From a virus: a stretch of 10,230 bases of DNA. Positions within the stretch are counted from its first letter, which is position 1. The number at the start of each line of letters is the position of its first letter. Under the pieces are notes generated by a model that saw nothing but the letters and a program-made list of their open reading frames with translations, did not search any database and was not told the origin of the DNA. A program made the position numbers and the translations under genes. This document shows positions 1-9,939 of the stretch, piece after piece. The stretch lies in UHGV virus genome UHGV-0083157; one strand, 5' to 3'.

Positions 1-66
1 TAGTTTATATGGTTAAAATTCGAGTTTTGCAAACTTGGGAACTGAGTTCAATTCTCAGTGACTCCA
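1..66 (+). tRNA. tRNA-Ala (anticodon TGC), 5' end truncated by window edge (window starts at about tRNA position 8)
   Basis: Manual fold: D-stem 3-6/16-19, anticodon stem 21-25/33-37, loop TTTGCAA (26-32), T-arm CTGAG-TTCAATT-CTCAG (42-58), 3' acceptor strand 59-65 with T at position 70 (consistent with G3:U70 Ala identity), discriminator A66, encoded CCA 67-69. Confidence 0.7.
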
Positions 67-75
67 CCAATTAGT

Positions 76-147
76 GCATCCATAGTTTAAACGGGAAAAT
101 TACAGTCTTCCAAACTGATGTTGAGGGTTCGATTCCCTCTGGATGCT
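76..147 (+). tRNA. tRNA-Gly (anticodon TCC)
   Basis: Acceptor GCATCCA (76-82) pairs perfectly with TGGATGC (140-146); T-arm GAGGG-TTCGATT-CCCTC (123-139); anticodon loop CTTCCAA (107-113); discriminator T147; CCA 148-150. D-arm pairing is weak. Confidence 0.62.
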
Positions 148-156
148 CCAAATAAT

Positions 157-230
157 GCTGCTTTCGTATAATTGGCTATTGCACATCCCTTGTAAGGATG
201 GAGATGCAGGTTCGAGTCCTGTGAGCAGCA
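157..230 (+). tRNA. tRNA-Thr (anticodon TGT)
   Basis: Acceptor GCTGCTT (157-163) pairs with GAGCAGC (223-229); anticodon stem CATCC/GGATG perfect (184-188/196-200), loop CTTGTAA (189-195); T-arm GCAGG-TTCGAGT-CCTGT (206-222); discriminator A230; CCA 231-233. Confidence 0.7.
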
Positions 231-329
231 CCAATTTTGAGGTCAAGTGAAAGACCGCTTGAGTCAACTGAAGACCGTAACAAATTCCACGGAGTTGAGT
301 TAGCGGCACAACTTCAGACTTCTTTTCAT

Positions 330-401
330 ACTCGCTTAGTTTATATGGTAAAGCCCCATCCTTACAAGTTGGTGAAGAAGGTTCAAGTCCTTCAGCGAGT
401 A
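330..401 (+). tRNA. tRNA-Val (anticodon TAC)
   Basis: Acceptor ACTCGCT (330-336) pairs with AGCGAGT (394-400); TA at positions 8-9; D-stem GTTT/AAGC; anticodon loop CTTACAA (361-367); T-arm GAAGG-TTCAAGT-CCTTC (377-393); discriminator A401; CCA 402-404. Confidence 0.62.
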
Positions 402-406
402 CCAAT

Positions 407-481
407 GTTCCAGTATCCCAATTGGCAGAGGATGCAAGCTCAAACCTTGTATTAGTGACGGTTCGAATCCGTCTTGGAACA
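407..481 (+). tRNA. tRNA-Leu-like (anticodon CAA), short variable region (type-I-like)
   Basis: Acceptor GTTCCAG (407-413) pairs with TTGGAAC (474-480); D-arm TCC-CAATTGGCAGA-GGA (3-bp stem, large loop); anticodon stem GCAAG/CTTGT (434-438/446-450), loop CTCAAAC (439-445); T-arm GACGG-TTCGAAT-CCGTC (457-473); discriminator A481 (matches Leu identity A73); CCA 482-484. Variable region only about 6 nt. Confidence 0.58.
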
Positions 482-489
482 CCAATTTT

Positions 490-494
490 AGGAG
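490..494 (+). promoter_or_regulatory. Shine-Dalgarno AGGAG for ORF 501-713
   Basis: AGGAG at 490-494, 6-nt spacer, ATG at 501. Confidence 0.4.
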
Positions 495-500
495 ATTCCT

Positions 501-713
501 ATGAAGCCTTATGGTAGACACGGTAAAGTTGAAATTGCAAGTTGTGGTTGCTGTGCTTCTCACGATGGTGAAGAAGATTACTACAAGTGGCGTATAGACC
601 ATCGTAGACGCTTTCTCAGAAGAGATAAGAAGAGAGCTAGACAGGAATCTCAAAAGAACATTGCAGAATTAGTTCAAATGGATAGAGCAGCAACCTACGA
701 AGTTGTTTGTTAG
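501..713 (+). CDS. Hypothetical small basic protein (70 aa, Cys-x-Cys-Cys motif, Arg/Lys-rich); 3' end overlaps tRNA-Arg
   Basis: ATG with strong SD at optimal spacing; open frame to TAG 711-713. The last ~50 nt of coding sequence coincide with tRNA-Arg (663-736), so this may be spurious. No recognisable domain. Confidence 0.35.
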   Translation: MKPYGRHGKVEIASCGCCASHDGEEDYYKWRIDHRRRFLRRDKKRARQESQKNIAELVQMDRAATYEVVC

Positions 714-736
714 GGGTTCGAATCCCTTATTCTGCA
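663..736 (+). tRNA. tRNA-Arg (anticodon ACG)
   Basis: Acceptor GCAGAAT (663-669) pairs perfectly with ATTCTGC (729-735); TA 670-671; D-arm GTTC-AAATGGATA-GAGC; anticodon stem GCAAC/GTTGT (690-694/702-706), loop CTACGAA (695-701); T-arm AGGGG-TTCGAAT-CCCTT (712-728); discriminator A736; CCA 737-739. Confidence 0.75.
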
Positions 737-758
737 CCAATTTAAAGAGGCTATTTAA

Positions 759-1316
759 ATGAGATATTTGAAGTATGCTTCATGGATTTTCCTAGCTTTG
801 CTAGAGCCATTTGCAGCAATCTTAGCAGTAATCTTAGCACCCTTTGTGGTTCCATTCTACAGTGAGAAGAAAGGTCACCTGCCTTTTGGATTCAGATGGA
901 TGGAAACTTATGACAACCAGATTGACGGTGACAAAGGTCACGTTGAACGATGGGCTAAGATTCGAAAGATTGGTAAGCTCGGTGTTTATATGCAGAGAGT
1001 TGGATGGCTCTGGAGAAACAAAGCTTATAACTTCTCTTACCATGTATTAGGAAGAGATGTAAAAGATGTTACTAAGTGGAAAGGTAATATCAACGTAAGT
1101 TCTAACCCTGAAGATAATCAGACAGGTTATCTACTGATGTGGAACAGTAATGCTTGGGGATTATTCGCTTTTATCCCATCAATTAAAGTCTTTGGTAAAC
1201 AGTTTTACTGGAGAATTTATGTTGGTTGGAAGCTTAAAAGTGTTGTCCCAGAAGAAAGAGCATTCTCAAGGGAAAGAATTATGTTGGCATTCTTTATTCA
1301 TCCACTAAGAAAGTAA
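759..1316 (+). CDS. Hypothetical membrane protein (185 aa; N-terminal hydrophobic segment, Trp/Tyr/Lys-rich remainder)
   Basis: ATG 759 preceded by AAGAGG (745-750, 8-nt spacer); uninterrupted frame to TAA 1314-1316; N-terminal stretch WIFLALLEPFAAILAVILAPFVVPF is a predicted TM helix. Embedded between tRNA-Arg and tRNA-Gln with 8 nt to the next tRNA. Confidence 0.6.
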   Translation: MRYLKYASWIFLALLEPFAAILAVILAPFVVPFYSEKKGHLPFGFRWMETYDNQIDGDKGHVERWAKIRKIGKLGVYMQRVGWLWRNKAYNFSYHVLGRDVKDVTKWKGNINVSSNPEDNQTGYLLMWNSNAWGLFAFIPSIKVFGKQFYWRIYVGWKLKSVVPEERAFSRERIMLAFFIHPLRK

Positions 1317-1324
1317 AGATTTAA

Positions 1325-1397
1325 AGGGGATTAGTTTACAAGGTTAAAACCTCGGTCTTTGAAATCGAAGAAGTTGGTTCAATTCCAACATCCCCCG
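1325..1397 (+). tRNA. tRNA-Gln (anticodon TTG)
   Basis: TA 1332-1333; D-stem GTTT/AAAC perfect; anticodon stem TCGGT/ATCGA (1352-1356/1364-1368), loop CTTTGAA (1357-1363); T-arm GTTGG-TTCAATT-CCAAC (1373-1389); 3' acceptor ATCCCCC (1390-1396); discriminator G1397 (Gln identity G73); CCA 1398-1400. The 1:72 pair is A/C, a weak first pair. Confidence 0.62.
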
Positions 1398-1402
1398 CCA
1401 AT

Positions 1403-1478
1403 GCTCCATTACTCCAATTGGCAGAGAGGCCAGACTTAAAATCTGTGTTATGTATCGGTTCGAATCCGATATGGAGTA
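1403..1478 (+). tRNA. tRNA-Leu-like (anticodon TAA), short variable region (type-I-like)
   Basis: Acceptor GCTCCAT (1403-1409) pairs with ATGGAGT (1471-1477); D-arm CTC-CAATTGGCAGA-GAG (same architecture as the 407-481 tRNA); anticodon loop CTTAAAA (1435-1441); T-arm ATCGG-TTCGAAT-CCGAT (1454-1470); discriminator A1478; CCA 1479-1481. Variable region about 7 nt. Confidence 0.58.
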
Positions 1479-1488
1479 CCAAATTAAT

Positions 1489-1561
1489 AGCAGTGTAGCA
1501 TAACTGGCAATGCTCCAGCCTCTGAAGCTGAAAGATTAAGGTTCAAATCCTTACGCTGCTG
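1489..1561 (+). tRNA. tRNA-Gln (anticodon CTG)
   Basis: Acceptor AGCAGTG (1489-1495) pairs with CGCTGCT (1554-1560); D-stem GCAT/ATGC perfect; anticodon loop CTCTGAA (1520-1526); T-arm TAAGG-TTCAAAT-CCTTA (1537-1553); discriminator G1561; CCA 1562-1564. Confidence 0.62.
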
Positions 1562-1595
1562 CCACTTCTAAGGGTTCTTACGAGAGTCCTTACAT

Positions 1596-1669
1596 GTGGC
1601 CTTATCATAAATGGATAATGACCCATGCTGTGAACATGGTCTATATGGGTTCGATTCCCGTAGGTCACC
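1596..1669 (+). tRNA. tRNA-His (anticodon GTG)
   Basis: Acceptor GTGGCCT (1596-1602) pairs with AGGTCAC (1662-1668); D-stem TCAT/ATGA perfect; anticodon stem CCATG/CATGG perfect (1623-1627/1635-1639), loop CTGTGAA (1628-1634); T-arm ATGGG-TTCGATT-CCCGT; discriminator C1669 (His identity C73); CCA 1670-1672. The -1 position is T, so no encoded G-1. Confidence 0.75.
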
Positions 1670-1680
1670 CCAAATTTAAT

Positions 1681-1753
1681 GGGTTAAGTAGCTTATATGG
1701 TTAAAGCGCGTGTCTGAAAAACATGAGAAGAGGGTTCAAATCCCACTAACCCG
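1681..1753 (+). tRNA. tRNA-Phe (anticodon GAA), irregular acceptor/T-arm geometry
   Basis: D-arm GCTT-ATATGGTTA-AAGC (1691-1707); anticodon stem CGTGT/ACATG (1709-1713/1721-1725), loop CTGAAAA (1714-1720); T-loop TTCAAAT (1735-1741); acceptor GGGTTA(A) pairs with (C)TAACCC; CCA 1754-1756. One extra nucleotide near positions 8-9 or a mismatched T-stem pair, so boundaries are +/-1 nt. Confidence 0.55.
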
Positions 1754-1773
1754 CCAATTTCAAAAGGTGCTTA

Positions 1774-2508
1774 ATGAAAGAGATGACAGAACAAGGTAAA
1801 GGGATTTTCAATCTCCTGAAATCCGGTAACGGGTTTTCTAACCCTCTTATTACCGGTGCAGCAATCCTTGGTGGCACAATTGCTGCTTCTACTTCATTAG
1901 TAAGCTCTCTTAGCTCGGTATCAGACCCTACTGTACAAGATAAGCTTATTGCGGCTGGTTTAACAGTAGCACTATTAAGTAGCTTTACAACAAGTCTGGG
2001 AAGCACAACCTCAACAACCAATACACTGACCAAATATGGACAGAAGTCTGTAGATGAGTTTTCACAGCGTATGCAAGTAGCTAAAGGTTACTCTAACGTT
2101 ATGGGAGCAGCAGGTGAACAGGTTGGTTGTACTCCATTTAGTGGAATCATGGGAGTTGCTACTGAGTACGGTAACAAAGCAATGGAACTGATTAACACCT
2201 CTTTAGATGCTGTGAATGACGTTCTAAGCGATTTACAAGATGCAATTGACCAAGGACTAGCAACCATCGAAGAACTCGCCTCACAAGCCGTTACAGCGAT
2301 TAATCAGGGCATTGCTAAGATTACTGCATATGCTAATGAGGTCACTCAGATGATTGCAGATGAAGCAGCGTTAATTGCTGATTACTTGAAAACGAATATT
2401 AATGGTTTCCTTGCAGGTGTCTTACCAGACTGGTTTGATGATGCTTGTAAAACTGGCGTGATTGATTCAATCGCAACTCCAGAAATGAAGGATGCCTTGA
2501 ACAAATAA
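1774..2508 (+). CDS. Hypothetical protein (244 aa; Ser/Thr/Ala/Gly-rich low-complexity N-terminal half with a hydrophobic segment, acidic helical C-terminal half)
   Basis: ATG 1774 with AAAGG/AAGGTG upstream (1763-1769); open frame to TAA 2506-2508; sits 17 nt after the CCA of tRNA-Phe and 2 nt before tRNA-Ser. No recognisable catalytic motif. Confidence 0.6.
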   Translation: MKEMTEQGKGIFNLLKSGNGFSNPLITGAAILGGTIAASTSLVSSLSSVSDPTVQDKLIAAGLTVALLSSFTTSLGSTTSTTNTLTKYGQKSVDEFSQRMQVAKGYSNVMGAAGEQVGCTPFSGIMGVATEYGNKAMELINTSLDAVNDVLSDLQDAIDQGLATIEELASQAVTAINQGIAKITAYANEVTQMIADEAALIADYLKTNINGFLAGVLPDWFDDACKTGVIDSIATPEMKDALNK

Positions 2509-2510
2509 TT

Positions 2511-2600
2511 GGAAGATTAACCCTAAAAGGTAAGGGAACAGTTTGCTAAACTGTCAGTAACCGAGAAATCGGCGTACCAGTTCAAGTCTGGTATCTTCCT
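2511..2600 (+). tRNA. tRNA-Ser (anticodon GCT), type II with long variable arm
   Basis: Acceptor GGAAGAT (2511-2517) is the perfect complement of ATCTTCC (2593-2599); anticodon stem ACAGT/ACTGT perfect (2538-2542/2550-2554), loop TTGCTAA (2543-2549); long variable arm with CCGA-GAAA-TCGG stem (2555-2575); T-arm ACCAG-TTCAAGT-CTGGT; discriminator T2600; CCA 2601-2603. Confidence 0.8.
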
Positions 2601-2610
2601 CCAATTTAAT

Positions 2611-2683
2611 GCGTCGATGACAGAAATGGCTATGTGCCTGTCTGCAAAACAGGATTATGAGGGTTCGACTCCCTTTCGACGCT
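2611..2683 (+). tRNA. tRNA-Cys (anticodon GCA)
   Basis: Acceptor GCGTCGA (2611-2617) is the perfect complement of TCGACGC (2676-2682); anticodon stem CCTGT/ACAGG perfect (2637-2641/2649-2653), loop CTGCAAA (2642-2648); T-arm GAGGG-TTCGACT-CCCTT; discriminator T2683 (Cys identity U73); CCA 2684-2686. Confidence 0.8.
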
Positions 2684-2721
2684 CCAAATTATTTTACTCT
2701 CTCTCAAAATAAAATAATAAC

Positions 2722-2908: not shown

Positions 2909-3109
2909 ATGAACGAGACTAATGTTTACAAAGAACTTTATGATGCAAACAAAAGAGCCGAACTGTTACAGAACACTATTATTAGTGTTGCTCACCGTCT
3001 GGCTAATGCAACTGGTAAAGATATTAAAGAAACCAATATGGATGAACTGTTAGATGCAGTTGATGTAAAGTTTGGTGTTAAGTCTACCGAAGAAGTTGCT
3101 GCTGAATAA
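2909..3109 (+). CDS. Hypothetical small protein (66 aa) immediately upstream of the large terminase
   Basis: ATG 2909 with GGAG (2898-2901, 7-nt spacer); stop TAA 3107-3109; acidic, helical-looking. Too short for a confident small-terminase call. Confidence 0.5.
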   Translation: MNETNVYKELYDANKRAELLQNTIISVAHRLANATGKDIKETNMDELLDAVDVKFGVKSTEEVAAE

Positions 3110-3130
3110 TTCTATTTGCGGAGGCGCTTA

Positions 3131-4732
3131 ATGGATTTGAATGCTGTTAAGCAGAAGCGAGTGGAAGATGTAAGGAGAGTCCTAGCTGGAGAGTTGGGAC
3201 TTTCTGATGAAGTTAAAGATATTATCAAGTCATTTGGTAAAGACCCCTCTAAATTCCTTCCTACTCAGATTCTGACTTTATTAAGATACACTCCAGACCA
3301 AGTAAGACTTATCTTCAAACTTATGACTGATAAGAACTATGTAGCTCCACAACCCGGCTCTCAGGAAGTATTTCTTAACACAAATGCTGACTTAGTTCTG
3401 TATGGTGGTGCTGCTGGTGCTGGTAAGACTGCTGCTTTGCTGATGGATTCACTCAGATTTATCGAAGACCCTAACTATAACGCTGTATACTTCCGTCGAA
3501 ACACGACACAGTTACAAGGTGGTTTATGGCCTGCTGCGAAGAAGCTTTTTGGTAAGTTCGGTGGTGTCCCACATGAACAGAAGATGACTATTGTATTCCC
3601 TTCTGGGGCTACTATCAAGTTTACCTACTTAGAACTTGAAAAACACGCTGAAGGTCATCAGGGTATTGAATACTCAGCAATTTACTTTGACGAAGGTACA
3701 CACTTCTCTGCGTCACAGATTTCATACCTACAAACACGTCTTCGTTCTGGTGCTGAAGGTGACTCTTACATGAAGATTTCCATGAACCCAGACAGAGACC
3801 ACTTCATTTACGATTGGGTAGAACCATTCTTAGACGAAGAAGGTTATCCAGACCCTGAGAAATGTGGTCGTATTCGTTGGTATGTGATGAGTGATGGCGT
3901 GATGGTATCTGATTGGGATAGAGACAAGATTCTTGAAATGTTTCCTCTGGAGATTCCTCAGACGTATACTTTTATCTCTGGTACGATTGATGATAACCCA
4001 ATTCTTGACTTCTTGGAACCGAAGTATCGTGGTAAGCTTGAAAACAACACTCCAGTAAACGTTGCACGTTTGAGATTTGGTAACTGGAAAGCTCGTGCAG
4101 AAGGTTCTAACTATTGGCAAAGGCAATGGTGTGAGATTGTTGATTCAGTTCCACCTGATGTATTTGATGTTAGAGCATGGGACTTAGCGGCTACTTTACC
4201 TTCTGAAGTTAACCCTAACCCTGACTGGACAGCGGGTGTTAGAATGGCTAAATCTAAAAAAGATGGTTGCTATTATGTCATGAACGTAGTAAGATTTAGA
4301 GATAGACCTTCTGGAGTCGAGACACAAATTAACTTGACTGCTGAAAGCGACGGCAAACGTACTGGTATCTTTATTCCTCAAGACCCAGGCGCTGCTGGTA
4401 AATCCTACGCAACATCTCTTATCAGAAAACTTGCCGAGAAAGGTTATCGTGCAAGAGCCAAACCAACCAATAAAGATAAAGTTACCCGTTTTGCGGGTTT
4501 CTCTGCTGCTTCTGAAGCAGGATTGGTAAAAATCGTTAGAGGTAGCTGGAACGAAGCCTATTTCCAAGAACTTGAAGGTTTTTGTGGAGATGGGAAAACC
4601 AAGGATGACCAAGTGGATGCCACAAGCGATGCTTTCAACAGTCTCAACGAAGTAAAACTATTCAAGCCGCCTTCTATGGGTACTCACACTGATTTAGTGA
4701 GAAGCAATCCTTATGAGGGGCTTAGACGTTAA
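3131..4732 (+). CDS. Terminase large subunit (533 aa from ATG 3131; ORF track uses an upstream TTG at 3116)
   Basis: GGAGG (3120-3124) 6 nt before ATG 3131; Walker A-like LVLYGGAAGAGKTAA; Walker B-like AIYFDEGTHF; C-terminal nuclease-like region with VRAWDLAAT; size and position before the portal gene are typical of TerL. Confidence 0.85.
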   Translation: MDLNAVKQKRVEDVRRVLAGELGLSDEVKDIIKSFGKDPSKFLPTQILTLLRYTPDQVRLIFKLMTDKNYVAPQPGSQEVFLNTNADLVLYGGAAGAGKTAALLMDSLRFIEDPNYNAVYFRRNTTQLQGGLWPAAKKLFGKFGGVPHEQKMTIVFPSGATIKFTYLELEKHAEGHQGIEYSAIYFDEGTHFSASQISYLQTRLRSGAEGDSYMKISMNPDRDHFIYDWVEPFLDEEGYPDPEKCGRIRWYVMSDGVMVSDWDRDKILEMFPLEIPQTYTFISGTIDDNPILDFLEPKYRGKLENNTPVNVARLRFGNWKARAEGSNYWQRQWCEIVDSVPPDVFDVRAWDLAATLPSEVNPNPDWTAGVRMAKSKKDGCYYVMNVVRFRDRPSGVETQINLTAESDGKRTGIFIPQDPGAAGKSYATSLIRKLAEKGYRARAKPTNKDKVTRFAGFSAASEAGLVKIVRGSWNEAYFQELEGFCGDGKTKDDQVDATSDAFNSLNEVKLFKPPSMGTHTDLVRSNPYEGLRR

Positions 4733-4749
4733 CAATTCAGGTGAGAAGA
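4726..4749 (+). repeat. Translation-initiation-region repeat copy 1 (ACGTTAACAATTCAGGTGA + GAAGA) abutting the portal ATG and overlapping the TerL stop codon
   Basis: 19-nt core 4726-4744 is identical to 7919-7937; contains SD-like AGGTGA (4739-4744) 5 nt before ATG 4750. Confidence 0.7.
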
Positions 4750-6216
4750 ATGGCAGAAATTACAGAAACACAAGAAAACCTACCTCCATTCAGAATGGGT
4801 GAGGTTGGGAGCCTTGGTTTAAAGGTTCGTAATGGAAGAATCTACGAAGAACCTAGACAAGCTTTAAGATTCCCAGAAAGTATTAAAACTTTCCAACTAA
4901 TGATGCGTGACCCCGCTGTAGCGGCATCTGTAAACATTATTAAGATGTTTGTTAGAAAAGTCAACTGGAGATTTGTTCCTCCGAAGGGAAAAGAACAAGA
5001 CCCTAAGATGATTGAACGGGCAGACTTCTTTAACTCTCTGATGGATGACATGGAGCATGATTGGGCTGACTTTATTAACTCTGTAATGTCATTCTGTACT
5101 TACGGATTCTGCGTGAATGAGAAAGTTTACAAGAAGCGTCAGGGTAATAAAGGGAAATACCCTTCAAGATATAATGATGGTTTAATTGGTTGGGCTAAAC
5201 TCCCTATCAGAAACCAGTCAACTCTTGATAAATGGTATTTTGATTCAGACTATCGAAAAGTAACAGGTGTTAGACAGAATCTGAGAAACGTTTCACACAT
5301 TGCTGGAGCTATTAATCTGGCTGAACAGCCACTAACAAGAAAACTTCCAAGAAGTAAATTCTTGCTGTTCAAATATGATGATGAGTACGGTAACCCAGAA
5401 GGTCGTTCACCATTACTTAATGCTTATGTACCTTGGAAATATAAAGTCCAAATTGAAGAGTACGAAGCAGTTGGTGTTTCCAGAGACTTAGTAGGTATGC
5501 CAAAGATTGGTTTACCACCTGATTATCTGGATGAGAATGCTGAACCTGAAAAGAAAGCTTTCGTAGAATACTGCAAATCTGTAGTTAATGATATGATTGC
5601 AAATGACCGAGCAGGTTTAATCTGGCCTAGATTCATCGACCCAGAAACTAAAGAGGATATCTTTGAGTTCTCATTAGTATCTAGACAGGGTGCAAAGGCT
5701 TACGATACCGGAGCTATCATTGACCGTTATTCTAAGCAGATTATGATGGCGTTTATGTCAGACGTTCTTGCAATGGGTCAGTCAAAATATGGTTCATTCT
5801 CTTTAGCAGATTCTAAGACAAGTTTACTTGCAATGTCTGTAGATATTCTTCTGAAACAAATCAGAAACGTAATTAACCGTGACCTAGTAGCACAGACTTA
5901 CGCTCTGAATATGTGGGATGATGAAGAACACGTTCAAATCGTTTATGACGACATTGAAACTCCAGACCTTGAAGCTATTGGTGCTTACATTCAGAAGACC
6001 GTTGCAGTTGGTGCTATGGAAGTTGATAAGGAACTGTCTAACAAGCTTAGAGAACACATTGGATTACCACCTGCTGATGAGTCTCAACCTGTGTCTGAAG
6101 AATTATCTCCTAACACTCAAAGTCGTTCAGGTGATGGTTATAAGACTGCCGGAGAGGGAACTGCGAAGACCCCTTCAGCAAAAGACCCAAGTACAGCGAA
6201 TAAGGCAAATAAATAA
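4750..6216 (+). CDS. Portal protein (putative; 488 aa from ATG 4750; ORF track uses GTG 4741)
   Basis: Follows TerL directly; AGGTGA SD 5 nt upstream of ATG 4750; size about 490 aa with acidic/low-complexity C-terminal tail; position between terminase and prohead protease. No direct homology check was possible. Confidence 0.65.
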   Translation: MAEITETQENLPPFRMGEVGSLGLKVRNGRIYEEPRQALRFPESIKTFQLMMRDPAVAASVNIIKMFVRKVNWRFVPPKGKEQDPKMIERADFFNSLMDDMEHDWADFINSVMSFCTYGFCVNEKVYKKRQGNKGKYPSRYNDGLIGWAKLPIRNQSTLDKWYFDSDYRKVTGVRQNLRNVSHIAGAINLAEQPLTRKLPRSKFLLFKYDDEYGNPEGRSPLLNAYVPWKYKVQIEEYEAVGVSRDLVGMPKIGLPPDYLDENAEPEKKAFVEYCKSVVNDMIANDRAGLIWPRFIDPETKEDIFEFSLVSRQGAKAYDTGAIIDRYSKQIMMAFMSDVLAMGQSKYGSFSLADSKTSLLAMSVDILLKQIRNVINRDLVAQTYALNMWDDEEHVQIVYDDIETPDLEAIGAYIQKTVAVGAMEVDKELSNKLREHIGLPPADESQPVSEELSPNTQSRSGDGYKTAGEGTAKTPSAKDPSTANKANK

Positions 6217-6584
6217 TGGCTGAAGTTATCTCTATTTCAAATGCTACACGAGTGCATTCGTATAGAGGTGTTCTGGTTATTACTGATACGTTATCTGTAG
6301 AGGCTGGCTCAAGGGTCAGCCTTTCAGGTTATGTAAGTGATGGTGGAACCTCTAACGTTTTCACTATTTGCAGGTTACTTGATGCTCCAATGAACGGAAA
6401 TTCGTTTATTTCAAACAATTGTAGCGAAATTGTTAAAATTCTATTTGACAGTTCATGCCTTTTGGGTGTAAAGTTATATAACTGTGAGAATAAACGTATA
6501 AACGTTAATAGCGTTGAAGCTGCGTTCATTACCATTGACACAGCATTTCAATCCCCAATGACAGTAAACAAGATCGGAGTCTAA
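6216..6584 (+). CDS. Hypothetical protein (122 aa, beta-rich, 4 Cys), start overlaps the portal stop (TAATG)
   Basis: ATG 6216-6218 overlaps portal TAA 6214-6216 (translational coupling); open to TAA 6582-6584; no recognisable motif. Confidence 0.5.
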   Translation: MAEVISISNATRVHSYRGVLVITDTLSVEAGSRVSLSGYVSDGGTSNVFTICRLLDAPMNGNSFISNNCSEIVKILFDSSCLLGVKLYNCENKRINVNSVEAAFITIDTAFQSPMTVNKIGV

Positions 6585-6624
6585 CAGACTTGAGTACATT
6601 TTTTCACAAAATGATTACAAAGTA

Positions 6625-6652
6625 CTTGTCAAAGGTAAAGTGTATGATATGA
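6625..6652 (+). promoter_or_regulatory. Candidate sigma70-like promoter (TTGTCA - 16 nt - TATGAT) in the 135-nt gap before ORF 6720
   Basis: -35-like TTGTCA 6625-6630 and -10-like TATGAT 6647-6652 in an AT-rich non-coding gap. Sequence-only call. Confidence 0.25.
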
Positions 6653-6719
6653 TTGTAAATGTGGTGGATGAATCTGGTAACCATTCAACAGTCCTTAAAC
6701 AGAAAGTAAGGTTCAATTA

Positions 6720-7052
6720 ATGGGAACATTAACTATTGATGGTAAGAATAAAATCCTCGCCACGCTAACCCCAACGACTATTGTTTTACACAATGTAGAC
6801 CCAACGGCAGACCCTACAGCAAATAAGGTTACTCAGCCAGTGGCTATTTATTTCTCTGAACCGAACAACGGCTTAATCGCCTCAGAAGATACAGTCAAGA
6901 TTACTGTACCAGCTTCTGCAACGGTCTCACACTATAGCCTATGGGATGCCAACGATAAATGCGTGGCAACAGGTGCTCTTAGCAGCCCTCAATTCTTTGC
7001 TGAAGAAGGTATCTATGTTATCGCTTCAGTATCGGTGGATTTAAACAAATAG
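6720..7052 (+). CDS. Hypothetical protein (110 aa, Thr/Val/Ala-rich, likely beta-rich)
   Basis: ATG 6720 with AAGG (6707-6710) upstream; stop TAG 7050-7052, 10 nt before the protease ATG; no recognisable motif. Confidence 0.5.
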   Translation: MGTLTIDGKNKILATLTPTTIVLHNVDPTADPTANKVTQPVAIYFSEPNNGLIASEDTVKITVPASATVSHYSLWDANDKCVATGALSSPQFFAEEGIYVIASVSVDLNK

Positions 7053-7062
7053 GGTGAGTAAA

Positions 7063-8406
7063 ATGAGTTCGAATATCTTCAGACTTGCTGATAGATTATT
7101 CAACCAACCTTTACTAGCCACTGAATCTCTAGCTCACTCAGCAGCGACTTATGTAAATAACCGCTTGTTAGGTGAAGTTCAAGCAGCAGTCAATTTCGAC
7201 AAACCTAAAGGTGAGGCAAGAAGTCTTTTAAAAGTTAAAGACGACATTGCTATTATCCCTATTATGGGTGGCCTAACACATCGTATGACATTTATGGATG
7301 CAATGTGTACTGGTGGTCTAAGTTCTTATGAAGGTTTACGCAGAGGCTTCGACGAAGCTTTAGCAGATGAATCTATTAAGACGATTGTACTGCACGTTGA
7401 TTCTGGTGGTGGTGAAGCTTCAGGTTGTTTTGAATTAGCACGTCACATCGTAGCCTCCAGAGGCAAAAAGAAAATTGTAGCATATGTTGATGAGTTCGCA
7501 TGTTCCGCTGCGTATGCACTTGCATGTTCTGCTGATGAAGTAATTGCATCACCAGATGCAGATGTTGGTTCAATCGGTGTAATTATGGTTCACCAAGAAT
7601 TAACTAAAGCGTTTGAAAAGAATGGCGTTACAATTAACGTTATTAAAGCTGGTGAATTTAAAGGTTTGGGTTCCCCATTCCAAGCACTCTCAGAAGAAAG
7701 CAAAACAAGACTTCAACAGAGAATTAATGACACCTATAACACCTTCACAGGTTTTGTAGCTGATTCACGTAATATCTCCGAAGAAGCTGTAAAGAATACT
7801 GAGGCGAATGTTTATTCTGCTCAGGAAGCTCTTGAACTTGGTTTAATTAATTCAATCATGTCTCAAGATGATTTCTTAAATTACTTACAAGGTTCTGATG
7901 AAGCTCCTGTAAGTTTAAACGTTAACAATTCAGGTGAAGAAATGACTGAACAAGAAAAGCAAGAACTAGAGGCTCTACGCGCTCAGGTTGCTCAGATGAA
8001 AGCAAAAGAACAGGAAAAAACTATGTCTGAACTGACTGGTAAGATTTCTGCTTCTGCTGAAGCTTTCGGGTTTGACGCAACAGAAGCTGCTCAGGCTATC
8101 TTAGGCGCTGGTCTTGACAACCCTCTGAGTGTTCTCTTTATGAATGCTATGGAAGGTGCTAACCAGAAACTAAATGAAACTATCGCGGCTCATGCTTCTG
8201 CACTGTCAGAGAAAGATTCCGAAATCACTAAGCTGAAAGAAACTGCTGGTGCTGTTCTGGAACACTCTAACGCAATGGAAGAAATGGGTAATGACGGTGA
8301 AGCAGAACTGGTTGACGAAGAAAAACCTTCTGAAAACGCATCTGATGACACCGCAGAACAACGCAAACTGGCTCTCCAGAATGCTTTGAAATCTCTTATC
8401 AAATAA
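7063..8406 (+). CDS. Prohead (head maturation) protease, S49/SppA-like, fused to a C-terminal coiled-coil scaffold-like domain (447 aa from ATG 7063; ORF track uses GTG 7054)
   Basis: GGTGA (7053-7057) 5 nt before ATG 7063; motifs IPIMGGLTH, HVDSGGGEASG and EFACSAAYALACSAD resemble the S49 (lambda gpC / SppA) Ser-Lys peptidase fold; residues from about 295 onward are acidic, Ala/Glu/Lys/Gln-rich and heptad-like, as in scaffolding proteins. Confidence 0.8.
   Translation: MSSNIFRLADRLFNQPLLATESLAHSAATYVNNRLLGEVQAAVNFDKPKGEARSLLKVKDDIAIIPIMGGLTHRMTFMDAMCTGGLSSYEGLRRGFDEALADESIKTIVLHVDSGGGEASGCFELARHIVASRGKKKIVAYVDEFACSAAYALACSADEVIASPDADVGSIGVIMVHQELTKAFEKNGVTINVIKAGEFKGLGSPFQALSEESKTRLQQRINDTYNTFTGFVADSRNISEEAVKNTEANVYSAQEALELGLINSIMSQDDFLNYLQGSDEAPVSLNVNNSGEEMTEQEKQELEALRAQVAQMKAKEQEKTMSELTGKISASAEAFGFDATEAAQAILGAGLDNPLSVLFMNAMEGANQKLNETIAAHASALSEKDSEITKLKETAGAVLEHSNAMEEMGNDGEAELVDEEKPSENASDDTAEQRKLALQNALKSLIK
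7919..7941 (+). repeat. Translation-initiation-region repeat copy 2 (ACGTTAACAATTCAGGTGA + AGAA) abutting an internal in-frame ATG of the protease gene
   Basis: 19-nt core 7919-7937 is identical to 4726-4744; SD-like AGGTGA (7932-7937) 4 nt before ATG 7942. Confidence 0.7.
7942..8406 (+). CDS. Putative nested scaffolding protein (154 aa) translated from an in-frame internal start within the protease gene (lambda C/Nu3-like arrangement)
   Basis: In-frame ATG 7942 preceded by a strong SD and the exact portal TIR repeat; it lies at the boundary between the protease domain and the coiled-coil domain; product MTEQEKQELEALRAQVAQMKAKEQEK... is helical and acidic. Confidence 0.4.
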   Translation: MTEQEKQELEALRAQVAQMKAKEQEKTMSELTGKISASAEAFGFDATEAAQAILGAGLDNPLSVLFMNAMEGANQKLNETIAAHASALSEKDSEITKLKETAGAVLEHSNAMEEMGNDGEAELVDEEKPSENASDDTAEQRKLALQNALKSLIK

Positions 8407-8418
8407 GGAACACAAATA

Positions 8419-8796
8419 ATGGCATATGAAGGTTTTACTCACTTAGGTAACAGAGAACCACTGAATGATATCATTCTTTGGGAACAGATTACACCAACAG
8501 GTCACTCTCGTAAGGAGTACGCTCCAGTCGCTTCCACAGAATACCGTGTAGGTGAAGTTCTGAAAGCTGATGGAACCAAAGTTGCAGCAGGTGAAGAAGC
8601 TCAGGCTGACTCTGTTTGCATCGTTAACTTCTACGCAGACCTGCAACTGTCTTACCACGGTCAGTTGAAAGTTGTTGGTATCTACCGTGATGCTGAACTG
8701 AAAGACCTCTTAACTCTGGCTGATGGCGTTGACGCTGCTGCTGTTAAGACTGCTCTTGCAGCGAAAGGCATTGATTTCGTACCAACTGGCCTGTAA
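8419..8796 (+). CDS. Putative head decoration/auxiliary capsid protein (125 aa), in the gpD-equivalent position
   Basis: ATG 8419 with AGGA (8406-8409) upstream; stop TAA 8794-8796; small protein between protease/scaffold and major capsid gene, as in lambda-like head modules. Function assigned from position and size only. Confidence 0.45.
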   Translation: MAYEGFTHLGNREPLNDIILWEQITPTGHSRKEYAPVASTEYRVGEVLKADGTKVAAGEEAQADSVCIVNFYADLQLSYHGQLKVVGIYRDAELKDLLTLADGVDAAAVKTALAAKGIDFVPTGL

Positions 8797-8826
8797 TAAC
8801 AATAAGACATTCTGGAGAATTTTATA

Positions 8827-9939
8827 ATGGCATTAACTAATTCTGAAAAAAGCAGATTTTTCCTTGCTGACCTGACTGGTGAAGTCCAGTCTATCCCAAA
8901 TACTTACGGTTATATTTCCGGTTTGGGTCTTTTCCGTTCTGCCCCAATTACTCAGACTACTTTCCTGATGGATTTAACTGAGTCTGACATTAGCTTACTG
9001 GATGCAGTAGACCGTACCAGCCGTAAAGCTGAGACGAGTGCTCCAGAGAGAGTTAAGCAGATTAGCTTCCCAATGATGTACTTCAAGGAAGTGGAGAGCA
9101 TTACTCCTGATGAAATTCAGGGTGTACGTCAGCCAGGCACTGCAAACGAACTGACTACTGAAGCTATCGTTCGTGCTCGTAAGCTGATGAAGATTCGCAC
9201 CAAGTTCGATATTACTCGTGAGTTCTTGTTCATGCAAGCTCTGAAGGGTAAAGTAATCGACGCTAACGGTGTTCTGTACGCTGACCTGTTCAAGCAGTTC
9301 GACGTTGAGAAGAAGACTGTTTACTTCGACCTTGACAATCCAAACGCTGATATCGACGCTGCTATCGAAGAACTTCGTATGCACATGGAAGATGAAGCTA
9401 AAGTTGGTACTGTAATCAACGGTGAAGAAATTCACATCGTTGTTGACCGTCTGTTCTTCAGCAAGCTTATCAAGCATCCGAAGATTCGTGACGCATACCT
9501 TGCACAGCAGACTCCGCTGGCTTGGCAGCAGATTACTGGCTCTCTGAGAACTGGTGGTACTGATGGCGTTCAGGCGCACATGAACACATTCTACTATGGT
9601 GGTGTGAAGTTTGTTCAGTACAATGGTAAGTTCCAAGATAAGCGTGGTAAGACTCACGTTCTGGTAAGCATCGACGGCGTAGCAAACACTGTAGGTGTTG
9701 GTCATGCGTTCCCTAACGTTTCTATGTTGGGTGAAGCTAACAACATCTTCGAAGTTGCATATGGCCCATGTCCTAAGATGGGTTACGCAAATACTCTTGG
9801 TCAGGAACTGTACGTATTCGAATACGAAAAAGACCGTGACGAAGGTATTGACTTCGAAGCTCACTCTTACATGCTGCCATACTGCACACGTCCTCAGTTG
9901 CTGGTAGACGTTCGTTCTGACGCTGCACCAGAAGGCTAA
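8827..9939 (+). CDS. Major capsid protein, lambda gpE-like family (370 aa)
   Basis: ATG 8827 with GGAG (8813-8816) upstream; stop TAA 9937-9939; several segments resemble lambda gpE as recalled from memory (ALKGKV vs VLKGKY; YYGGVKFVQYNG vs MYGDVAIVVYSGQY); position after protease-scaffold-decoration genes. Confidence 0.8.
   Translation: MALTNSEKSRFFLADLTGEVQSIPNTYGYISGLGLFRSAPITQTTFLMDLTESDISLLDAVDRTSRKAETSAPERVKQISFPMMYFKEVESITPDEIQGVRQPGTANELTTEAIVRARKLMKIRTKFDITREFLFMQALKGKVIDANGVLYADLFKQFDVEKKTVYFDLDNPNADIDAAIEELRMHMEDEAKVGTVINGEEIHIVVDRLFFSKLIKHPKIRDAYLAQQTPLAWQQITGSLRTGGTDGVQAHMNTFYYGGVKFVQYNGKFQDKRGKTHVLVSIDGVANTVGVGHAFPNVSMLGEANNIFEVAYGPCPKMGYANTLGQELYVFEYEKDRDEGIDFEAHSYMLPYCTRPQLLVDVRSDAAPEG

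Follow-up and report, generated by a model that had tools for sequence, protein, structure and literature searches.

A known tRNA cluster, probably of a Suspvirus-like coliphage, as a fixed tRNA order with open reading frames in exchangeable slots

The first 2.7 kb of the DNA of virus genome UHGV-0083157 raise the question of why protein-coding genes stand among densely packed transfer RNA (tRNA) genes, how the two are expressed and what they are for. The window, i.e. the whole stretch of DNA analysed here (10,230 nucleotides (nt)), opens with thirteen tRNA genes at positions 1-2686, accompanied by three open reading frames (ORFs), ORF1 to ORF3. A sequence-only reading had described this array with its ORFs partly correctly, and the long-known Felix O1-type cluster went unrecognised in it. 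We consider it likely that positions 1-2686 are the distal 13 genes of a Felix O1-type tRNA cluster from a Suspvirus-like coliphage, and this estimate includes the model of joint expression and of ORFs as cargo that is given below. The array is genuine and not a product of chance, but what we see is a re-observation of a known and annotated cluster, described in 2010.

Positions 1-2900 match 292 phage records, 216 of them with at least 80% coverage, and all close matches belong to the Ounavirinae, the Felix O1-like myoviruses. Nucleotide identity is 95-96% over 100% of the length to the Suspvirus-type Escherichia phages EcSzw-2, SUSP2, CHB7, phiSUSP1 and mistaenkt, and 89-96% to cluster relatives in the Ounavirinae, whose clusters hold 22-26 tRNAs. 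In the mistaenkt record (window position 1 is position 3001 of that locus) the same tRNAs and the same three coding sequences are annotated at identical offsets, including the coding sequence that overlaps tRNA-Arg. The order Ala-Gly-Thr-Val-Leu-Arg-[ORF]-Gln-Leu-Gln-His-Phe-[ORF]-Ser-Cys, on one strand, is kept in the 27 Felixounavirus, Suspvirus and Mooglevirus loci that span it, with tRNA-Arg(ACG) undetected in three of them (L015, L017, L025). Downstream, at 3116-9939, Pfam and PHROG models identify the large terminase, portal, head protease and major capsid protein, and the gene order (small ORF, large terminase, portal, protease, major capsid) is that of Felix O1 ORF51-58, with the array directly upstream of this module as in the Felix O1-type cluster. 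The Felix O1 cluster was published with 22 tRNAs, an analysis of codon usage and timing by reverse transcription PCR (RT-PCR) (Whichard et al., 2010, PMC3185647), and it is annotated in GenBank, e.g. in NC_005282, MN850587 and KT454806.

The tRNA genes were called with ARAGORN and with the Rfam tRNA model RF00005 (gathering score 29). ARAGORN detected 12 of them, at 76-2686 and all on the + strand, and Rfam returned the same 12 at 44-61 bits plus a thirteenth at 1-66, so that the earlier count of thirteen tRNAs in 2.7 kb, all on one strand, is borne out, as is the CCA encoded by each of them (13 of 13). The tRNA genes and the ORFs, whose coordinates had been given correctly, are:

1-69, + strand: tRNA-Ala(UGC), Rfam 40.1 bits over model positions 8-71, flagged as cut at the 5' end
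76-150, + strand: tRNA-Gly(UCC), ARAGORN and Rfam (60.9 bits)
157-233, + strand: tRNA-Thr(UGU), ARAGORN and Rfam (50.8 bits)
330-404, + strand: tRNA-Val(UAC), ARAGORN and Rfam (56.7 bits)
407-484, + strand: tRNA-Leu(CAA), 78 nt, short variable region (class-I-like), ARAGORN and Rfam (44 bits)
501-713, + strand: ORF1, 70 amino acids (aa), basic, 8.3 kDa, isoelectric point (pI) 9.2, phrog_10765, Shine-Dalgarno sequence AGGAG
663-739, + strand: tRNA-Arg(ACG), ARAGORN and Rfam (59.6 bits)
759-1316, + strand: ORF2, 185 aa, DUF7338, 22 kDa, pI 10, N-terminal hydrophobic anchor (residues 6-36) and globular domain
1325-1400, + strand: tRNA-Gln(UUG), ARAGORN and Rfam (56.6 bits)
1403-1481, + strand: tRNA-Leu(UAA), 79 nt, short variable region, ARAGORN and Rfam
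1489-1564, + strand: tRNA-Gln(CUG), ARAGORN and Rfam (60.7 bits)
1596-1672, + strand: tRNA-His(GUG), discriminator C73, ARAGORN and Rfam (46.6 bits)
1681-1756, + strand: tRNA-Phe(GAA), ARAGORN and Rfam (44.8 bits)
1774-2508, + strand: ORF3, 244 aa, DUF7217, 25.3 kDa, pI 4.3, phrog_2114, two weakly hydrophobic Gly/Ser/Thr-rich segments
2511-2603, + strand: tRNA-Ser(GCU), 93 nt, class II with long variable arm, ARAGORN and Rfam (47.2 bits)
2611-2686, + strand: tRNA-Cys(GCA), last tRNA of the cluster, ARAGORN and Rfam (55.8 bits)

The tRNA-Ala gene lies at the window edge and misses about 7 nt at its 5' end; its CCA is at 67-69, its anticodon was read by eye, and the mistaenkt orthologue is annotated as tRNA-Ala (locus positions 2994-3068).

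When ARAGORN was run on more than 30 related loci, the order of the tRNAs proved invariant in Felixounavirus, Suspvirus and Mooglevirus, and the spacers fell into discrete length classes:

Leu(CAA)-Arg slot, 5, 114 or 178 nt: nothing, a 35-aa ORF (Felix O1) or ORF1, respectively
Arg-Gln slot, 7-9, 241, 585 or 810-823 nt: empty (Sf13, Sf14, Moogle, Mordin), a 75-aa ORF, the DUF7338 gene alone, or both
Gly-Thr slot, 6-7 or 429 nt: nothing or an HNH endonuclease
Phe-Ser(GCU) slot, 752-755 nt: always ORF3

The window and Felix O1 share the tRNA order, the strand, the site upstream of the small ORF, terminase and portal, and the orthologues of ORF48 and ORF49, and differ only in slot content: the Leu-Arg slot holds the 70-aa ORF1 of Suspvirus and Mooglevirus in place of the 35-aa ORF, and there is no HNH endonuclease between Gly and Thr. 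The Erwinia phage Panisse (Kolesnikvirus) has 26 closely packed tRNAs, and no gene is annotated in the gaps. Because the tRNA order is fixed while the contents of the slots vary, the ORFs are thus insertions, or cargo, in the inter-tRNA slots of a fixed scaffold and do not form a functional unit with the tRNAs. They had been described as lying between tRNAs with gaps of 2-17 nt, which is right as to position for ORF2 (19 nt after tRNA-Arg, 8 nt before tRNA-Gln) and ORF3 (17 nt after tRNA-Phe, 2 nt before tRNA-Ser) and wrong for ORF1, and the gaps are 2-19 nt.

ORF1 starts 16 nt after tRNA-Leu(CAA), and its last 51 nt (663-713, stop codon included) lie inside tRNA-Arg(ACG), the 5' half of which serves as its last 16 codons. 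The 178-nt segment is found in 42 phage records, all named as Shigella, Citrobacter, Escherichia, Salmonella or Enterobacteria phages; the nine carriers examined are all Suspvirus or Mooglevirus, and no homologue outside these two was found among 50,697 phage records. It could be supposed that this Leu-Arg spacer is non-coding and structured, and that ORF1 is an annotation artefact running into tRNA-Arg. The same-strand overlap with a tRNA, the loss of the stop codon on RNase P cleavage, the mere 5 nt found at this position in most Felixounavirus, a spacer RNA that folds somewhat better than shuffled sequences (z -2.8) and the lack of annotation in several GenBank records (HP1, Sf14, KMM2) would all agree with that. 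However, the frame is open in all 11 distinct relative sequences, with an in-frame deletion of 3 nt as the sole indel and with the ATG and AGGAG invariant, and in codons 1-54, which lie outside the tRNA, the variable sites are distributed 4:4:15 over the codon positions (15 of 23 third positions, binomial p = 0.0017) with conservative replacements (R/K, D/E, N/D, S/A/T). The same slot in Felix O1, moreover, has a basic ORF with its own Shine-Dalgarno sequence that also ends in tRNA-Arg. We therefore hold an artefact to be quite unlikely and judge ORF1, from these comparisons, to be a real coding, lineage-restricted small gene. The Felix O1 ORF (L003, 5055-5168; MSNNSIAKKFRASYLNRRKNKVCEKLYGVLVGKQD) is unannotated, different in sequence, 35 aa long and preceded by GAGGAG, and its stop codon is likewise inside the tRNA. 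Micro-ORFs that end in this way could couple translation to the maturation of tRNA-Arg.

ORF2 matches Pfam DUF7338 (PF24027) over residues 1-184 of 185 with 206.3 bits (cut-off 27), and no solved fold was found to match it. In Sf13, Sf14, Moogle and Mordin the slot of this gene is empty, the gene is also absent from Kolesnikvirus, and close homologues (55-87% identity) lie inside or beside the tRNA clusters of other phages: in a different slot, Asp-Ser(UGA), in the Hafnia phage Zyzzx, in the tRNA region of Av-05 (Vequintavirinae), where it is accompanied by the 75-aa partner ORF also seen in the Citrobacter phage HP1, and in or near the tRNA clusters of RB43, JS98, Melville and other T4-like phages. 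Between Av-05 and the window the ORF2 protein is 79% identical, the tRNA-Gln beside the cassette just 67%, and transfer of tRNAs together with ORF2, which we had considered, was rejected on this ground. In the stretches fetched around distant DUF7338 homologues (at most 42% identity), tRNAs were found neither upstream nor directly downstream, so the function of the family is not tied to tRNAs. ORF2 is, as far as comparison of sequences can tell, a dispensable, horizontally mobile and membrane-anchored accessory cargo protein.

The best 120 of the 1279 clusters returned by a DUF7338 profile search are all 117-206 aa long and, bar one, hold only the DUF7338 domain; the sole functional name among these 120 is 'holin', given to HP1_24 of the Citrobacter phage vB_CbrM_HP1. 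The N-terminal transmembrane segment with a C-terminal domain is compatible with such a role, its topology loosely recalling holin T of T4. Furthermore, the holin of Felix O1 has not been identified (PMC3185647). The gene is nevertheless absent from the above-mentioned sister phages, all of which lyse their hosts, does not adjoin the endolysin (gp35 in Felix O1) and has no match to a holin family in Pfam or PHROG, and on these grounds the label was rejected. T4-like phages also carry DUF7338, and these presumably have a t holin gene of their own. Finally, the holin candidates of the Felix O1 authors exclude ORF48 (PMC3185647), the ORF2 orthologue, which leaves the identification of ORF2 as a holin very improbable.

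Some further observations on DUF7338 concern its distant relatives and the ends of its slot. Among the distant homologues, one stands on a large phage contig directly after a tail-fibre gene with Collar and Peptidase_S74 domains (L100, 6001-6579), a position typical of surface-modification or exclusion morons, another follows a Gly_rich_2 protein (L101, 6001-6537), and a further one is chromosomal. In the window the filled Arg-Gln slot (740-758 and 1317-1324) has ATTTAA at its start and at its end, while the empty slot of Sf13 and Moogle (L086, L089) is (A)ATTTAAT only; the hexamer is the usual trailer after CCA. This suggests that the DUF7338 cassette may be gained and lost by microhomology at tRNA trailers.

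ORF3 matches Pfam DUF7217 (PF23854) over residues 8-242 (E 1.6e-84, 283.8 bits, cut-off 29). It is predicted to be all-helical, with an AlphaFold2 model (predicted local distance difference test score 61) too poor for a structure search. The gene lies at the distal end of every Ounavirinae array examined, between tRNA-Phe and tRNA-Ser(GCU) in the loci that reach this slot and 17 nt after the last tRNA in Panisse. A possible counterpart, annotated as 'putative membrane protein', stands 137 nt after the last tRNA of Zyzzx. The protein (244 aa) is homologous over its full length to ORF129 of LIMEstone1 (242 aa, 31% identity, E 2e-31), a 25.0-kDa protein detected in the virion by electrospray ionization tandem mass spectrometry (2 unique peptides, 18% coverage) and annotated as 'confirmed structural protein'. 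Because of this homologue ORF3 is probably a virion-associated, possibly minor, protein. An older GenBank entry, AF071201 (L094, 171-623), holds the N-terminal part (150 aa) of the DUF7217 orthologue from Felix O1 under the label 'red: complements red mutants of bacteriophage Lambda'; the fragment is 82% identical to ORF3, and the protein has no resemblance to a recombinase.

How, then, are the ORFs expressed? The leaders of the three ORFs are only 16-19 nt long, with the Shine-Dalgarno sequences AGGAG, AAGAGG and AAAGG, which leaves no room for promoters of their own, and a consensus scan found no sigma-70-like promoter on the + strand in 1-2700. In mistaenkt an 11 of 12 match to the sigma-70 promoter, TTGACA-17-TATAGT, lies 1.67 kb upstream of the window start and is identical to P45 of Felix O1 (PMC3185647). 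Downstream of the last tRNA, the RNA of 2687-2908 folds strongly (minimum free energy (MFE) -68.2 kcal/mol, z -6.8, with none of 200 shuffles as good) and contains two elements:

2722-2781, + strand: a long hairpin (2722-2775) followed by U6 (fold), a candidate terminator or 3' stabiliser
2847-2870, + strand: a second intrinsic-terminator-like hairpin, GACGGTCTCTGCGCCGTC, followed by T6 (pattern scan), also present in mistaenkt

By RT-PCR, ORFs 45, 46, 48 and 49 of Felix O1 peak at 5 min and ORFs 51 and 53 at 60 min (PMC3185647). ORF48 (DUF7338) and ORF49 (DUF7217) are the orthologues of ORF2 and ORF3 and stand between the same tRNAs. Given the lack of an internal sigma-70-like promoter, the short leaders, the hairpins after the tRNAs and the early RT-PCR class of ORF48 and ORF49, co-transcription is plausible.

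The tRNA ends offer a possible processing signal. The 3' ends read CCAA in 12 of the 13 tRNAs (CCAC in Gln(CUG)), and the exact CCAAWTT junction, which had been ascribed to every tRNA, follows 8 of the 13. It is not universal, but its enrichment at tRNA ends is real: 8 of its 9 matches in the window fall at tRNA 3' ends, i.e. within 2.7 kb, with about 4 matches expected in the whole 10.2-kb window on both strands. An A after CCA is also common in Felix O1 (20 of 24 tRNA genes), Kolesnikvirus (21 of 23), Av-05 (11 of 14) and two T4-like arrays (16 of 18 and 10 of 11), or 78 of 90 in these five phage arrays pooled, and is weakly represented in Zyzzx (4 of 10) and in the E. coli K-12 tRNA genes sampled (5 of 23); the loci compared were the window, L003, L093, L030, L042 and L006 against L103-L107 of E. 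coli. RNase E prefers to cut between RN and WUU, and the junction of CCAA and WUU fits this preference.

We envisage that transcription by the host RNA polymerase begins upstream of the window at a promoter of the sigma-70 type, a candidate being the TTGACA-N17-TATAGT that follows tRNA-Ile in relatives, and that one early precursor would run through tRNAs and ORFs as far as the hairpins and U-tracts of 2722-2870. Host RNase P would cut the 5' end of each tRNA, and an endonuclease, probably RNase E, would cut the A/U-rich trailer just after CCA, between CCAA and WUU. The products would be tRNAs of mature length and short mRNAs on which ORF2 and ORF3 have Shine-Dalgarno leaders of 17-19 nt. A single early tRNA-mRNA transcript is plausible, and so is, for ORF2 and ORF3, the proposal of the sequence-only reading that tRNA processing sets the ends of the messages cut from one precursor. 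For ORF1 that proposal is wrong, since an RNase P cut at the 5' end of tRNA-Arg would remove its last 16 codons and stop codon, leaving a message without a stop, and tRNA processing therefore cannot set the end of its mRNA. Full translation of ORF1 would compete with the maturation of tRNA-Arg, the two presumably excluding each other on one precursor molecule.

Two spacers of the array are themselves structured:

234-329, + strand: 96-nt Thr-Val spacer, one long hairpin, not a tRNA (MFE -27.3 kcal/mol, z -2.8)
1565-1595, + strand: 31-nt Gln(CUG)-His spacer with a 10-bp hairpin (alifold -10.4)

The former measures 94-99 nt and has a nearly invariant core in 31 Felixounavirus, Suspvirus and Mooglevirus loci (alifold -26.6), and only 6 nt stand at the Thr-Val position of Kolesnikvirus. 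A search of Rfam gave no match to it, not even at E <= 1, and the idea that it is a degenerate tRNA was rejected. By analogy with the species 1 and 2 RNAs of the T4 cluster it could be processed to a small stable RNA. The latter is always 31 nt long in loci that have both tRNAs, with 5 distinct sequences among the 24 loci compared.

As to the purpose of the tRNAs, we compared 2264 phage codons from the late genes of the window with 14,685 E. coli codons from a single 49-kb region, with highly expressed genes as the reference. The late genes over-use TTA, GTA, ACA/ACT, GCA/GCT, CAA and GGA, and do not over-use TTG, CGT, CAG, AGC and TGC. The codons read by Leu-UAA, Val-UAC, Thr-UGU, Ala-UGC, Gln-UUG and Gly-UCC are thus over-used, and the tRNAs would supplement the host pool, about half of them reading A/T-ending codons that the phage over-uses. 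Codon compensation, proposed earlier for the array, explains roughly half of the 13 tRNAs: it holds for these six and fails for five (Leu-CAA, Arg-ACG, Gln-CUG, Ser-GCU and Cys). The authors of the Felix O1 study reached an agreeing conclusion on codon usage (PMC3185647).

Identity between the phage tRNAs and their cognates in E. coli K-12 is 56-71%. Of the nine anticodon loops compared, three are identical to those of the host, namely Gly (the glyT loop, at 71% identity overall), Thr and Arg(ACG) (the argV loop), and six differ, at positions 32 and/or 38 only and never at 33-37. This pattern speaks neither for nor against evasion of anticodon nucleases. Both tRNA-Leu genes are class-I-like at 78-79 nt, while leuZ, leuW and leuT of E. 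coli K-12 measure 85-87 nt (leuZ 87 nt); aligned to the tRNA model, the variable region of tRNA-Leu(CAA) holds just a few inserted bases. Both genes retain the D-loop AAUUGGCAGA and A73. Elsewhere, tRNA-Leu is 77-78 nt long in Kolesnikvirus and 87 nt in the T4-like phage Melville. The tRNA-Ser(GCU) has the length of E. coli serV. The tRNA-Phe has G73 as discriminator, where that of E. coli has A73, and a mismatched 7-66 pair, and its 5' boundary differs by one base between Rfam and ARAGORN.

Several points weigh against the account given so far. The promoter scan looked for the sigma-70 consensus only and its hit count was at chance level. The RT-PCR table of Felix O1 is noisy, capsid gene 58, for example, also appearing at 5 min (PMC3185647), and a literature search found no Felixounavirus transcriptome. 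Processed ORF mRNAs with a 5'-monophosphate and no 3' hairpin could be very unstable, it would be unusual for a virion protein such as ORF3 to come from an early tRNA transcript, and the five tRNAs named above read codons that the phage does not over-use. The Felix O1 paper called 'gp49' structural from a 51-kDa gel band, which misfits ORF49 (244 aa, about 25 kDa), and its whole-phage shotgun mass spectrometry list omits gp49 and includes gp63 at 48.9 kDa (PMC3185647); the assignment of the band is probably a numbering slip and, the masses being inconsistent, we discarded it as support for ORF3.

A rival reading is that the ORFs are expressed apart from the tRNAs, from phage-specific middle or late promoters of a non-sigma-70 type inside the upstream tRNA genes, with ORF3 serving late morphogenesis. 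Such promoters would have escaped our scan, the ORF3 homologue of LIMEstone1 is a virion component annotated with its own late promoter, and in Felix O1, mistaenkt, HP1 and Panisse ORF3 stands at the distal end of the array, shortly before the small ORF and the terminase module. Yet with only 17-19 nt before ORF2 and ORF3 each promoter would have to be embedded in the conserved sequence of a tRNA gene, the terminase operon is set apart from ORF3 and the two final tRNAs by the hairpins and U-tracts, and ORF48 and ORF49 fall in the 5-min class as opposed to the 60-min class of ORF51 and ORF53; we regard separate expression as improbable. It is also unlikely, if a little less so, that the array serves mainly anti-defence, with its tRNAs making up for host tRNAs that anticodon nucleases have cut and its ORFs supplying anti-defence proteins expressed alongside. 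Published studies report that tRNAs of T5 and other phages rescue infection from PrrC, retron-Eco7 PtuAB, PARIS and Septu, and the low identity to host cognates, the six divergent loops, the absence from both tRNA-Leu of the long variable arm of the host tRNA-Leu and the five tRNAs left over by codon usage would suit such a role. Known anticodon nucleases, however, cut at positions 33-37, where no loop differs, and the loops of Gly, Thr and Arg(ACG) are those of the host. The tRNAs relevant in experiments (Lys-UUU, Tyr-GUA) are not in the window. Felix O1-like phages are not mentioned in the tRNA-defence literature checked, and a literature search found no experimental rescue data for them on hosts with tRNA-targeting systems. 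As for the ORFs, scans of ORF1-3 against PADLOC and NCBIfam gave nothing significant (the best PADLOC hit, ZorA at E 5.7e-4, covers a low-complexity coiled-coil region), ORF3 is homologous to a virion protein and ORF2 is dispensable cargo, missing from several sister phages, so that their earlier nomination as anti-defence candidates finds no support.

The early tRNA-mRNA precursor with ORFs as cargo that we prefer has likenesses to other systems. The T4 tRNA region combines 8 tRNAs with two small stable RNAs (species 1 and 2), the SegB homing endonuclease and small ORFs on its flanks, and T5 has a comparable region. Early clustered tRNAs, processing by host RNases, interspersed small ORFs, homing endonucleases and structured RNAs other than tRNAs would be common to T4 and the Felix O1-type cluster, and the DUF7338 gene, too, occurs within or close to tRNA clusters of T4-like phages. 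The lineages are nonetheless unrelated, the window's tRNAs being 56-76% identical to those of one T4-like array, and some T4 tRNA genes are without an encoded CCA, while all 13 of the window encode it. In bacterial tRNA-mRNA co-transcripts such as the E. coli thrU-tyrU-glyT-thrT-tufB operon, and in the 'tRNA punctuation' of mitochondria, tRNA-processing endonucleases define the ends of messages. The window would resemble the tufB operon in having protein messages on the same precursor as tRNAs, but there the gap is 114 nt and the mRNA lies downstream only, whereas the ORFs of the window have tRNAs on both sides at gaps of 2-19 nt and one of them overlaps a tRNA. The Ackermannviridae homologues of ORF3 ('unknown structural protein'), LIMEstone1 ORF129 among them, match it over the full length at nearly equal size, but in the two loci examined the gene is not beside tRNAs and is flanked by the capsid gene and the gp3 tail-completion gene, and that of LIMEstone1 has an annotated late promoter.

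Two further observations concern neighbouring genes and the Felix O1 annotation. At 2909-3109, 6 nt upstream of the large terminase gene, lies a 66-aa acidic ORF (phrog_4397; Felix O1 ORF51, late by RT-PCR), and the phage group that carries it is said to be without a recognisable small terminase. The tRNA-Ser(GCU) of Felix O1, between ORF49 and tRNA-Cys (L003, about 7009-7101; record, about 30,008-30,100), is detected by ARAGORN and is 95% identical to the window copy, and it is annotated neither in RefSeq nor in the 22-tRNA table of 2010.

The finding itself adds little, for the cluster was described in 2010 and is annotated in relatives such as mistaenkt, and its chief use is as a tidy illustration of ORF slots that can be exchanged within a fixed tRNA scaffold. 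A bolder thought, which we put forward as doubtful, is that some coliphage accessory genes are specialised residents of tRNA arrays, with tRNA trailers acting both as RNase processing signals and as landing pads for promoter-less cassettes; if true, the conserved trailers would give an inserted cassette without a promoter immediate expression. What is new lies in side observations only, and these provide four small leads: the DUF7338 family that recurs in the tRNA arrays of unrelated phages, the small gene that ends inside a tRNA, the tRNA-Leu genes without a long variable arm and the conserved 96-nt hairpin RNA in the array. They could shed light on the expression and exchange of accessory genes without promoters in phages, and on what sets phage tRNAs apart from those of the host.

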